Of a DNA stretch of 64,000 bases, positions 12,293-23,164 are shown piece by piece (within the stretch, counting starts at the first letter, position 1; each line of letters starts with the position of its first letter). Both the position numbers and the translations under genes were made by a program. The notes under the pieces are model-generated. The model was not told the DNA's origin and made no database searches. It was given only the letters and a program-made list of their open reading frames with translations. Source of the stretch: a virus (Duplodnaviria; Caudoviricetes); the IMG/VR virus record IMGVR_UViG_3300015615_000196, positions 32,001-96,000 of that record. One strand, given 5' to 3'.

Positions 12293-12790
12293 TTAAGCGA
12301 GTCTGAACTTAGATAAGAATTCCTTTAGCAGGAAATTTTTTTCTCCACCGATTTGCTGTTTGAATGCTACTTCATCGAAGATGATGTGTATTGCAGGAAC
12401 AACTTCCATTGTACCATACTTAATAGGCTTCAACGCTGCTGCTGCATCGGGATACTTCTCACGATTCCAGATACGTTCATCTGCCAAGAAACAGAATGCA
12501 GTCATGCCGTTGTAGAGATCGGGTTCTTTGAAGAACGCAAGATCAACAATTTGATTATCGACCAAGTAACGGAAATGTTCGTTCAATGAAATTGATGAAC
12601 CACCATTTAGAATAATGATGGTTTTATCGCGTCCAGCCCAAGTCTGGTATTCTTCGGTATGACCGAATGCTCGTGCATGTTCAACAATTGCGTGAGCAGC
12701 TTGAATGCCCTGTTGAATTGGACTGAGGTTGTATAGAACAATGACATACATTCTTTGTTCTAACGGAGTGGCTTCTTTTTGTTCGTCCAT
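12293..12790 (-). CDS. Peptidyl-tRNA hydrolase Pth2-like protein
   Basis: RMYVIV..LSPIQQGIQAAHA, KTIIIL and FKEPDL..MTA pattern of phage Pth2-like proteins. Confidence 0.7.
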   Translation of the reverse strand: MDEQKEATPLEQRMYVIVLYNLSPIQQGIQAAHAIVEHARAFGHTEEYQTWAGRDKTIIILNGGSSISLNEHFRYLVDNQIVDLAFFKEPDLYNGMTAFCFLADERIWNREKYPDAAAALKPIKYGTMEVVPAIHIIFDEVAFKQQIGGEKNFLLKEFLSKFRLA

Positions 12791-17430: not shown

Positions 17431-17841
17431 ATGAAAAAACTATGTTCCAAATGTAAAACAAAAAAAGAACTCAAGCAATTTTCTCGTAATCGTTTTAATT
17501 CAGATGGTTATCATCATTACTGTAAATCCTGTAAAAATAAGGATGCTAAACATCGATATTCAACAAATGAAGAATATCGTTTAAAACGTCAAAGAAAACA
17601 ATTAAATTATCTATACGCACTATCTGAAACTGATTACGATCAACTACTAACAAATCAAAATCATTCATGTGCAATTTGTCTACTTCCATTTGAATCAAAA
17701 AGAAAGACCTTCGTTGATCATTGTCACAAATCAGGCAAAGTCAGAGGACTACTTTGCCCGAAATGTAACAATTTATTGGGTCAATGCCACGATGATACTT
17801 TGATTTTAAATTCAGCAATCGAATATCTCACCAAAATTTAG
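17431..17841 (+). CDS. Endonuclease VII-family HNH endonuclease (probable homing endonuclease)
   Basis: CAIC...VDHCH..GKVRGLLCPKCNNLLG; opposite strand to its neighbours and lower GC. Confidence 0.85.
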   Translation: MKKLCSKCKTKKELKQFSRNRFNSDGYHHYCKSCKNKDAKHRYSTNEEYRLKRQRKQLNYLYALSETDYDQLLTNQNHSCAICLLPFESKRKTFVDHCHKSGKVRGLLCPKCNNLLGQCHDDTLILNSAIEYLTKI

Positions 17842-18443
17842 TGTACTGCAACATTACTTACAATGTGTTTTCCACGTCTGTCAATTTGTTTCCATTTGAT
17901 TTTGAAGGACGTAGACTCGATACCACCGAACATTGAAGCATTTGCATGAATCTCACAAAGACCTGTGATCAATAAACTTACTGCCAACGGACTTTTGCAG
18001 AATTCATCGAGTTCCTCATTCTTAATGGTATGGATCACCATATCATTCTTGATCAACTCGGCAACAACATTGTCATTCTTAAATAACTTTTTCCACACTT
18101 CATACGATGCATTCGCATGATCAGGAAAATGTTGCTTACCGTTTTCGTCAAGACAACGGACATAAGGCTTTCCACAATCGTGATACACTTGGTAGCGCAT
18201 CATCGTATCGTCATCCAGTACGTTACTGATAACTTCGTAACCATACTGATCAAGCCAATCAGGAAGTTTCCATTCGTATTTCAATGGTGATCCTGTACGT
18301 AAATGAGCAATCAAGTCACGATAGTACTCGTTGACCAACTTACCGTGATCGAGAACAGACATTCCTTTTGTCTGCTCACAAGCAATCATATCATCAATGA
18401 GTTCCTTGAAACCCAAGTTCTCAGGTATTATTTTAGTTTCCAT
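17838..18443 (-). CDS. HD-domain protein
   Basis: HG...YHDCGKP...HFPDHA motifs. Confidence 0.65.
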   Translation of the reverse strand: METKIIPENLGFKELIDDMIACEQTKGMSVLDHGKLVNEYYRDLIAHLRTGSPLKYEWKLPDWLDQYGYEVISNVLDDDTMMRYQVYHDCGKPYVRCLDENGKQHFPDHANASYEVWKKLFKNDNVVAELIKNDMVIHTIKNEELDEFCKSPLAVSLLITGLCEIHANASMFGGIESTSFKIKWKQIDRRGKHIVSNVAVH

Positions 18444-19069
18444 ACTTGTCCTTTTTCAGGGTCATAATGCCAAACATAAAACTCGGCTTTCTTTTCAGGA
18501 TAGAACTTCCCGCTTTCGATTACTGCCATGCATTCACCTTGGCAGAAAGTTTCTTTTGTGAGTCCAAGCCATCCGTGTGCGGTCATCGTATTGAACTGAC
18601 CGATCTTACTGGTAAGTGGTTGGCGTACTTCCCAACCACCAGAGAAATATTTGTCGATGGTTCTGGTTGTCCACTCGGCAATTGATTTCTCGTGTACGTT
18701 TCTCGCATACGCAGCTTCATCTTCGATATGCTTCCAGTATGAGGCTTTGCGTTCCTCATTATGAACATATGTGAGATCATAGCGAATGCGTTTTTTGATT
18801 CGTTCGAGATCACCTTCTTCATCCCAAATGATACTGTCGATGTCCATTGTATGAATGTCAACTTTGTATCCTTGTGTTGAAGTGACCAGCACCGAATCGT
18901 GAGGATAGAATCGTTTCTCTTCTCCCAATTCTAAATACTGGTAGGGGCCATCCCAATAACCTTCCTTCGGTTCTGCAAACCAAGGTGCACCCCCACCGGG
19001 AAGGCGAACGTAGCCTTCACCAGTAGGGTCTGCTTCCTGCAACATCTTTATGAAGTCTTTTGTTTTCAT
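18428..19069 (-). CDS. Hypothetical protein
   Basis: ORF overlapping its neighbours in an operon. Confidence 0.6.
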   Translation of the reverse strand: MKTKDFIKMLQEADPTGEGYVRLPGGGAPWFAEPKEGYWDGPYQYLELGEEKRFYPHDSVLVTSTQGYKVDIHTMDIDSIIWDEEGDLERIKKRIRYDLTYVHNEERKASYWKHIEDEAAYARNVHEKSIAEWTTRTIDKYFSGGWEVRQPLTSKIGQFNTMTAHGWLGLTKETFCQGECMAVIESGKFYPEKKAEFYVWHYDPEKGQVWKLK

Positions 19070-19521
19070 GATATTGCTTGGTTCTTCTCTAATCTTATTT
19101 TGTAGAAGTCACCTTTCTCCTGCTTGTAGTCAGCATACGCAGCTTGCATTTTTGCCAATGCTTCTTTGTATGCCTTTCTCTTTTCTTGGATGGCGATTTC
19201 CTTGTCAGACTTGATGACACGCACTCGTAAGTCGGACTTCAAAATTGTCTTCATCAAGAAGTGTAAGAACTTGTTGATCCCTGCCAACGTAGGACGGTTG
19301 TAAATCATCCAGATGTAGTTCGCAAGTTTCTTTCTTTTCTTCTTGCTTGCGTTGATCAAAGCTGCATTGAATTCTGCTTCTGTGATCTTGTCAAAGTTAT
19401 CTCGGTCTTTGAACTGGTAATCGTTTTTCTTAACGAAGTCCTCGATCTTACCGAAAGCTGATTTAATGAACTGATAGTTAATAGCAGTTGCATGTACGTG
19501 ATTTGAGATTGTGTTTTCCAT
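19066..19521 (-). CDS. Basic hypothetical protein downstream of the TAG-containing mini-ORF
   Basis: ORF with an AT-rich translation-initiation region. Confidence 0.65.
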   Translation of the reverse strand: MENTISNHVHATAINYQFIKSAFGKIEDFVKKNDYQFKDRDNFDKITEAEFNAALINASKKKRKKLANYIWMIYNRPTLAGINKFLHFLMKTILKSDLRVRVIKSDKEIAIQEKRKAYKEALAKMQAAYADYKQEKGDFYKIRLEKNQAIS

Positions 19522-19602
19522 AACTGAAAATTGTTAAATTGTTAAATGATTATTTTCTTTCGTTACTTGGACACTGTGTCCGAGTAAATGTCCAAGTTCA
19601 GT

Positions 19603-19638
19603 TTATGGAGGTCGTTCGATGATCTATAACTTTTTCAT
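19603..19638 (-). promoter_or_regulatory. Leader mini-ORF MKKL*IIERPP* with in-frame TAG
   Basis: ATG AAA AAG TTA TAG ATC ATC GAA CGA CCT CCA TAA, followed by alternative hairpins at 19563-19597. Confidence 0.6.
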
Positions 19639-19654: not shown

Positions 19655-20026
19655 TTATTTAAATGATTTTAATGCCAGTGGTAGGTTCGAAAGCATCTTT
19701 CGAATTTCAGGTGTGGCGTATACGGCAAGAGCAGTTGCTTGATCCTGAATATCAGGTTCACGGAAAAGTGTGACGTAAGGCGTTGTCTCCCTTAATCGAT
19801 TGTACCAATCGATCAAAGACGCTTCGTCTTTAACTGCAAGTGTGATAATTGAATTGGATTCTTCTTTCCATTGCTTCGCAATAGCAGGATGCTCGTGTAT
19901 GAAGTCAGCAATGGCGTGGGCGGTCTGGACGACCTGATAACCCGGTGAAATATCCTGTCTGGTAAGTGTTACCAGCTTGGATTCGGTAAATCTCGAAATC
20001 TACCCGATGTTGTGATCTTTTTTCAT
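19655..20026 (-). CDS. Pth2-like peptidyl-tRNA hydrolase with in-frame TAG at codon 9 (not in ORF track)
   Basis: MKKDHNIG*ISRFTESKLVTLTRQDISPGYQVVQTAHAIADF...NSIITL...FREPDIQDQATALAV...LSNLPLAL; TAG at 20000-20002. Confidence 0.8.
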
Positions 20027-20080
20027 GACAGTTGTTTTTAAATTGTGTTTCGTTTAAATCTAAGTGCCTTGTAACTATAT

Positions 20081-20104
20081 ATACGCAAAGGAGGGAAAAA
20101 GGTT
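20081..20104 (-). promoter_or_regulatory. AACCTTTT-N11-CGTAT promoter (ECF-sigma-like)
   Basis: One of six copies with identical spacing, all upstream of operons. Confidence 0.7.
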
Positions 20105-20160
20105 TCAATAAAAAAAGGGTTTTTTTCAAAACCCTCTTTTCAGTCGAATTTAAACGATTT

Positions 20161-22786: not shown

Positions 22787-22872
22787 AAAGTATTGTTCTG
22801 ACATTGAACTACGCCCTTACGTCATGATCGTAATTTGAGGATCGGTGGGACTCCAACCCACAACTATACTTC
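22787..22872 (-). ncRNA. Circularly permuted tRNA-like (Y RNA/YrlA-like) RNA 2
   Basis: T-arm GUGGG-UUGGAGU-CCCAC lies 5' of D-arm GUUC-AAUGUCA-GAAC; closed by AAGUAU/AUACUU. Confidence 0.6.
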
Positions 22873-22874
22873 TG

Positions 22875-22947
22875 AGACCGTAACGGGACTCAAACCCGTA
22901 GCTTTTCGTTTTAGGGACGACCACTCTATCAGTTGAGTTATACGGCC
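22875..22947 (-). tRNA. Amber suppressor tRNA(CUA)
   Basis: GGCCGUA/UACGGUC acceptor, U73; GUCGU-CCCUAAA-ACGAA; C33 instead of U33. Confidence 0.75.
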
Positions 22948-22956
22948 AAATATTAG

Positions 22957-23161
22957 AACAACAAGCACTCTGACATTGAGTTACATCCGTGCAGTGGCCA
23001 CTGTACATGTCAAACTTTGGATTCTTCCCTGATGACTTGACGTTGTAAGGGGAATTCTCATATTGCTACAAGAATTACAACATCTTTATAACGCCTTTGC
23101 TCTGGTATCGAACTTTCAGCTTGGTGGATGATGGGAATCCAACCCACAACTTCTTGTTGTT
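22957..23161 (-). ncRNA. Circularly permuted tRNA-like (Y RNA/YrlA-like) RNA 1
   Basis: AACAACAAG/CUUGUUGUU closing stem; T-arm GUGGG-UUGGAUU-CCCAU; CAUCC/GGAUG acceptor-like stem with ~140-nt insert; D-arm ACUC-AAUGUCA-GAGU. Confidence 0.6.
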
Positions 23162-23164
23162 TTG

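Follow-up and report, generated by a model that had tools for sequence, protein, structure and literature searches.

A probable amber-gated phage operon with a translational attenuator triggered by stop codon readthrough

A short leader ORF with an internal amber codon precedes the gene of a 151-aa protein in a complete phage genome of 362,603 bases with direct terminal repeats, of which the window analyzed here (the whole stretch of 64,000 nucleotides) is a part. This leader is probably a translational attenuator that is triggered by readthrough, within an operon that is gated by amber codons. In the OFF state, host RF1 would act at the TAG of the leader and end its translation after four residues; the ribosome at the TAG would remain short of an anti-start strand that begins 17 bases further on, and the AUG of the 151-aa gene would stay paired. 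In the ON state, a phage CUA tRNA would outcompete RF1 and the ribosome would continue to Arg-Pro-Pro-UAA, where it would dwell due to slow Pro-Pro termination, cover the anti-start strand and thereby release the AUG. Since synthesis of the Pth2-like protein encoded upstream would itself need amber readthrough, the operon would read out how much active suppressor tRNA there is relative to RF1. Translation of the leader, suppression by phage CUA tRNAs, pausing and opening are the steps that we infer. The features of the locus are as follows (window coordinates unless stated otherwise; (-), minus strand).

22875-22947 (-): atypical CUA-anticodon tRNA with C33 and a G27.A43 mismatch, 2.85 kb upstream on the same strand
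20116-20135 (-): terminator-like hairpin and T run, ending the transcript of the upstream vWA gene
20080-20104 (-): promoter-like motif AAC-N16-CGTATA at the head of the Pth2 operon, a putative promoter
19655-20026 (-): gene of Pth2 fold whose codon 9 is an in-frame TAG (20002-20000)
19603-19638 (-): amber leader ORF MKKL-TAG-IIERPP-TAA (TAG 19626-19624, Pro-Pro 19611-19606, TAA 19605-19603)
19597-19609 (-): anti-start strand, comprising the last Pro codon, the TAA and bases beyond, predicted to pair with the start region of the 151-aa gene
19565-19597 (-): alternative hairpins of the first-pass annotation (arm A 19597-19588, arm B 19587-19576, common 3' arm 19574-19565)
19517-19528 (-): start region of the 151-aa gene with its AUG at 19521, the predicted target masked by the anti-start strand
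19066-19521 (-): 151-aa gene, the proposed regulated gene
18428-19069 (-): gene of a 213-aa protein, overlapping the stop of the 151-aa gene
17838-18443 (-): gene of a 201-aa HD-like protein, phrog_14850
299,220-299,292 of the complete genome (C1), outside the window: canonical CUA tRNA with its own promoter motif

The promoter-like motif, AAC-N16/18-CGTATA, recurs before many genes of this phage. Because the copy at 20104-20080 lies just past a terminator-like hairpin and the next copy is not found before 13577, the Pth2-like gene, the leader and the genes of the 151-aa, 213-aa and HD-like proteins are probably carried on one transcript. The 213-aa and HD genes, each of which overlaps its neighbor, may follow the 151-aa gene by coupling. 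An Endonuclease VII-type homing-like gene (17431-17841, plus strand) faces the end of the operon and overlaps the stop of the HD gene.

The Pth2-like ORF (20026-19655, minus strand) reads MKKDHNIG-TAG-ISRF... and terminates in TAA. A first-pass annotation of this DNA had described a mini-ORF 16 nt beyond that stop, with the same MKK start and the same TAG-AT context as the upstream gene. Both observations are borne out by the sequence: the ATG at 19638, 16 bases past the TAA, opens the ORF at 19638-19603 (minus strand), and ATG AAA AAA as well as TAG-AT occur in both ORFs. Three genes follow, as had been stated, and the last of them, which had been called an HD hydrolase, gives only a weak Pfam HD match (E 0.0016, below the Pfam cut-off). 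The stall motif proposed for the end of the mini-ORF is present as Pro-Pro-stop, but not as RxPP, the sequence being R-P-P-stop and not R-x-P-P. With a C-terminal Pro-Pro before its stop codon the leader belongs to the YbeL-PP type of sequence. C-terminal Pro-Pro delays termination in E. coli (PMC3834316), and by analogy a pause would be expected at the Pro-Pro-stop of this 10-residue chain in the phage host. The presence of two TAGs in one operon had also been taken as an argument against chance. Within this genome alone the loose pattern (M, TAG, PP-stop) is only mildly unusual: it matched once in the real genome and four times over 12 simulated genomes, and the strict leader pattern was absent from all 12. 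The argument against chance therefore comes not from single-genome counts but from conservation across related phages, which is clear.

As had been suggested in the first pass, phage genomes were searched for the leader motif. Among distinct homologues of the 151-aa gene with enough flanking sequence, 30 of 32 were preceded by a leader of the form M-x(1-4)-TAG-[IVLM]...P[PT]-stop, in which the TAG is codon 3-6; the two loci that lack a leader are L082 and L101. These loci are related to each other, and all counts given here ignore shared descent. A few leaders end in S-P or G-P in place of P[PT]. PP-stop closes 26 of 34 leaders, 23 of these 26 carry R or K before the PP, and Ile or Val directly follows the TAG in 31 of the 34. 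In the PP-stop leaders all four Pro codons are used at both Pro positions, and the next codon is TAA in 24 and TGA in two. Because of this free use of Pro codons, the peptide beyond the amber codon appears to be under selection, and a selected peptide at this position would require readthrough; the leader is thus presumably translated. A chance origin was assigned to MPR-TAG-VPP-TAA in phage XacN1, which lies antisense inside ORF366. In bacterial genomes a narrow scan returned three matches, all in metagenome bins, among which there was no sound bacterial copy; one of them is the same 362,763-base contig as the viral locus L034.

The leader belongs to the 151-aa gene and not to Pth2, next to which the first-pass annotation had proposed to look for it; it stays before the 151-aa gene where genes have been inserted after Pth2 (L001). 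A similar leader also precedes another gene family in three loci and Pth2 itself in four. In L034 (5527-5859), L038 (5431) and L043 (5474) a 110-aa family of another kind stands behind an amber-RPP leader and replaces the 151-aa gene. In L006 (4856), L015 (4851), L030 (4861) and L031 (4841) an amber-PP leader lies immediately before the amber-Pth2 gene, so that a single gene would be gated twice.

CUA tRNAs accompany the module. One was found within 5 kb on the same strand in 34 of 49 Pth2 loci, compared to none for UCA and one for UUA as controls, by a pattern that the C33 tRNA at 22875-22947 itself fails; among the loci of the 151-aa gene the count was 22 of 28. The tRNA at 22875-22947 scores 52.6 bits with Rfam, and its atypical features suggest that it may be a poor decoder. 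Both CUA tRNAs of this phage are predicted amber suppressors, judged by their cloverleaf and anticodons. A comparison of CUA tRNAs from 36 loci shows an invariant anticodon loop and very diverse acceptor stems and discriminator bases, so that no single amino-acid identity is evident. An ARAGORN call of tRNA-Ser(tga) at 22837-22924, which overlaps the CUA tRNA, is probably spurious, and odd tRNA-like pieces lie on both sides of the CUA tRNA (22787-23163, minus strand). Downstream of the canonical CUA tRNA, at a distance of 600 bases, lies a tRNA-like gene (C1 298,550-298,621) whose anticodon loop is irregular and has 6 bases. The head of the tRNA array (29791-29545, minus strand) shows a promoter-like motif, a leader ORF of 42 codons (29730-29602) and, just before tRNA-Trp, a hairpin that ends in a T run; it looks like an attenuator and could govern the array including the CUA tRNA at 22875.

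The signal might alternatively be a shortage of host RF1 through its loss or trapping, or misreading in general, with the CUA tRNA as a constant weak competitor or a bystander. This scheme would differ from the proposed attenuator solely by whether the tRNA term or the RF1 term of their ratio changes, and it fits the main anatomy of the locus. The features of the nearby CUA tRNA that are expected to weaken decoding, the fixed TAG-A/G context, which suggests a tuned leaky stop, and the loci in which no CUA tRNA lies nearby would all agree with it. However, it is CUA tRNAs and not other suppressors that accompany the module, including in the mycobacteriophages Bxz1 and Myrna, and we consider this source of the signal unlikely. 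A precedent is prfB, where RF2 regulates its own synthesis. There, as here, an early in-frame stop ties expression to weak termination; in prfB the event is a +1 frameshift at UGA and the product is a release factor, whereas here the event would be in-frame UAG readthrough, and no release factor is encoded in the phage genome.

In a folding of the region 19660-19515, a 12-pair helix was predicted between 19609-19597 and 19528-19517, the latter strand holding the AUG of the 151-aa gene. With a modeled ribosome at the TAG this anti-start helix was retained with a probability of 1.0; with the ribosome at the TAA it was lost, and hairpin A was replaced by hairpin B. In the model, the AUG region of the window, once freed, can still enter a weak local helix. 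In 20 of 30 loci the best duplex between leader and start region was outscored by at most 2 of 60 dinucleotide shuffles, and in these 20 it always lay 15-26 bases past the TAG. The modeled unpaired fraction around the AUG was 0.25 with the ribosome at the TAG and 0.62 with the ribosome at the PP-stop, the opening exceeding 0.2 in 23 of the 30 loci. Thirty-one of 34 leaders preferred their own start region over those of other loci (mean -10.9 versus -7.0 kcal/mol, and -3.2 for a control stretch), with the reservation that CCA-TAA is inherently complementary to TTATGG, which inflates pairing in the closest clade. Since the anti-start strand lies beyond the stop codon in six loci (L058, L059, L062, L072, L084 and L089), it cannot be explained as a side effect of the Pro codons and the stop. 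About a third of the leaders have weak or no anti-start pairing, for example L064, L066, L068, L085 and L094. According to these models the conserved switch is a long-range helix that masks the start codon of the next gene, with matched changes across loci. The arrangement that defines an attenuator of this kind, a helix that covers the start and has one of its strands beneath the paused ribosome, is predicted here and in about two thirds of the leaders. No relevant Rfam family covered the leader.

The switch had originally been sought in two local, mutually exclusive hairpins, which a paused ribosome would flip, for example as terminator and antiterminator. These hairpins are present in the folding, where arm A (-13.3 kcal/mol) and arm B (-9.6 kcal/mol) both pair with the common 3' arm 19574-19565. 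Both fold better than shuffled sequences, and once a ribosome with a 12-base footprint is placed at the TAA, the model switches from A (0.96) to B (0.98). Their arms, however, recurred in none of the 16 related leaders folded, and nothing comparable to the inner hairpin was seen in several leaders (L052, L075, L051). Neither hairpin is followed by a U run, the start codon lies outside both, and between 19603 and 19521 there was no U-run hairpin and no terminator was called. Hairpin A stacks inside the anti-start helix in the folding and may merely help to close it. A terminator-like variant does exist in other loci, upstream of Pth2: in L006, L015, L030 and L031, a long hairpin (z -4.4 to -5.4) takes its 5' arm from the Pro-Pro codons and is succeeded by a U run. 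These variants have the form of an intrinsic-terminator attenuator, which the leader in the window lacks, and in the models they are a second wiring of the same logic. A switch made of the two local hairpins is thus quite improbable. What remains of the original proposal is its logic, in which readthrough leads to the Pro-Pro-stop and to refolding of the RNA; this is supported by the modeling, and the hairpins named for it are not the conserved switch.

The Pth2-like gene carries an amber codon of its own. An early TAG, M-x(1-7)-TAG, was found in 40 of 41 distinct relatives, followed by AT in 32 and by GT in seven. In viral contigs these relatives were matched by an alignment-based search, a single-sequence search having given none. 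The PTH2 match of Pfam (PF01981, 29.2 bits versus a cut-off of 23) starts 8 residues past the first TAG, and Foldseek returned a Pth2 fold (E 1e-6, TM about 0.75 to archaeal Pth2); the protein is far below the NCBIfam equivalog cut-offs. The Lys of the N-terminal G-K motif is presumably the catalytic residue of archaeal Pth2. In the alignment of the phage family its position holds a conserved, nearly invariant Tyr, and hydrolase activity of the Pth2-like protein is therefore not assured. A second Pth2-like gene of the window (phrog_3668, 12293-12790, minus strand) has no amber codon. Jumbo phages encode Pth2 peptidyl-tRNA hydrolases (PMC7824862) that share the fold with the protein described here; an amber gate is unmentioned there, and the family described here differs in the Tyr at the position of the archaeal Lys.

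In the cultured mycobacteriophages Bxz1 and Myrna, Pth2 starts with ATG-TAG-GTG and GTG-TAG-GTG, respectively, and a CUA tRNA lies a few hundred bases downstream. Upstream of gp153 of Bxz1 (L099, 2590-2640) a short ORF, ATG-TTT-TAG-GTG, with a Shine-Dalgarno motif before it overlaps the start of gp153, the gene preceding Pth2, and may be another amber leader. In both phages the GTG that follows the TAG of Pth2 could be an alternative start of this gene, and many Pth2 genes open with two-codon ORFs. Both points would suit a scheme without any readthrough, in which minigenes end at the TAG, re-initiation or internal starts serve the downstream genes and the amber codon has another role such as peptidyl-tRNA drop-off. 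We give this scheme very little credence: conservation of an in-frame Pro-Pro-stop after the TAG would be useless without readthrough, and in the phage analyzed here the TAG is followed by ATT, an unusual start, with the Pth2 domain beginning 8 residues later.

Amber readthrough in this phage would take place against a standard code. Its long ORFs stop at TAA in 182, TGA in 52 and TAG in 16 cases, a single long TAG join is found in the whole genome, and the gain in coding density with code 15 is no greater than with code 4. These counts indicate that the phage is a code 11 phage and not recoded to code 15. The 'QI' starts of database proteins were rejected as evidence for insertion of Gln, as in the case checked (P0001) the Gln came from a gene caller that reads TAG as Q. 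A recoded phage with TAG as Gln, to which the Gln at the TAG position in database copies of the Pth2-like protein seemed to point, can hardly be maintained where TAG terminates normal genes, nor can decay or sequencing errors where 40 of 41 diverged relatives retain the TAG.

ErmCL is an arrest leader peptide that unmasks a downstream start. In secM-secA, too, a paused ribosome on the leader exposes a downstream start, and the RAPP/RxPP peptides ApdA and ApdP are long peptides with a localization signal whose R-x-P-P is read in elongation (PMC7897499). All of these share with the scheme proposed for the present leader a ribosome paused on an upstream ORF that melts a helix over the initiation region, and ApdA and ApdP in addition have Arg and Pro-Pro at the pause site. 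The leader does not belong to the RAPP/RxPP class of elongation arrest, as its motif is RPP and not RAPP, stands straight before the stop and closes a 10-codon ORF. Secretion force, a drug or a metabolite gates the known arrest peptides; here the gate would be an internal amber codon, and the pause would occur at the Pro-Pro-stop of a 10-codon leader. PepNL of E. coli is similar in that a tRNA competing with a release factor at a stop codon decides on arrest at a leader; there, readthrough of the terminal UGA by the normal Trp-tRNA cancels arrest (PMC11890864), whereas here arrest would depend on readthrough of an internal UAG, and the locus is linked to a dedicated CUA tRNA.

In phages recoded to code 15, CUA tRNAs and in-frame TAGs were proposed as an expression gate (bioRxiv 10.1101/2021.08.26.457843). 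Recoding is genome-wide in those phages and the gated genes are lysis or structural genes; here, under code 11, TAG is limited to one gene start and one leader, and neither kind of gene is concerned. Phage XacN1 (PMC5852040) and Stenotrophomonas phage Summit (PMC9022506) combine a standard code with CUA tRNAs for which no target was found. They share the CUA tRNA without recoding with the present phage, in which there are two conserved candidate targets. ORF364 of XacN1 is an HD protein fused to a Pth2 domain, and no amber codon was found at this HD-Pth2 junction or at the start of ORF295. In a search of mainly open-access literature, no paper was found that describes an amber-gated leader or an amber-gated Pth2 in phages.

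The 151-aa protein is basic and mostly helical with a long C-terminal helix, and its relatives form about 260 clusters at the 50% level. Pfam, PHROGs and NCBIfam gave no match, and a fold search returned only generic long-helix matches, which does not amount to a new fold. The gene of the 213-aa protein is often found in the equivalent operon of other loci. The HD-like protein is the commonest neighbor of amber-Pth2 and was placed by the Atlas close to clusters partly annotated as HD. With a Pth2 fold and an HD protein in one operon, its purpose may, tentatively, be a response of tRNA recycling or repair that is triggered when termination is bypassed. More doubtful is a feedback circuit on the genetic code itself, in which the amber leaders would gauge CUA tRNA against RF1 and the induced 151-aa and Pth2-fold proteins would act back on tRNA or termination.

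We class the leader as probable ribosome-mediated attenuation with a new input signal. Known attenuators sense amino acids, drugs or secretion, and an input by internal UAG readthrough was not found in the literature searched. For the orphan amber suppressor tRNAs, which are frequent in standard-code phages, the locus offers two conserved candidate targets, and it bears on how phages start to recode stop codons and protect translation. The leader would also be a ready-made genetic part that reports amber suppression. Since Bxz1 and Myrna hold the half of the module made up of amber-Pth2 and the CUA tRNA, this half is testable in M. smegmatis. If the feedback circuit were true, orphan suppressor tRNAs would gain a dedicated job, and phages of this kind would represent a controlled intermediate between genomes of standard code and recoded ones.
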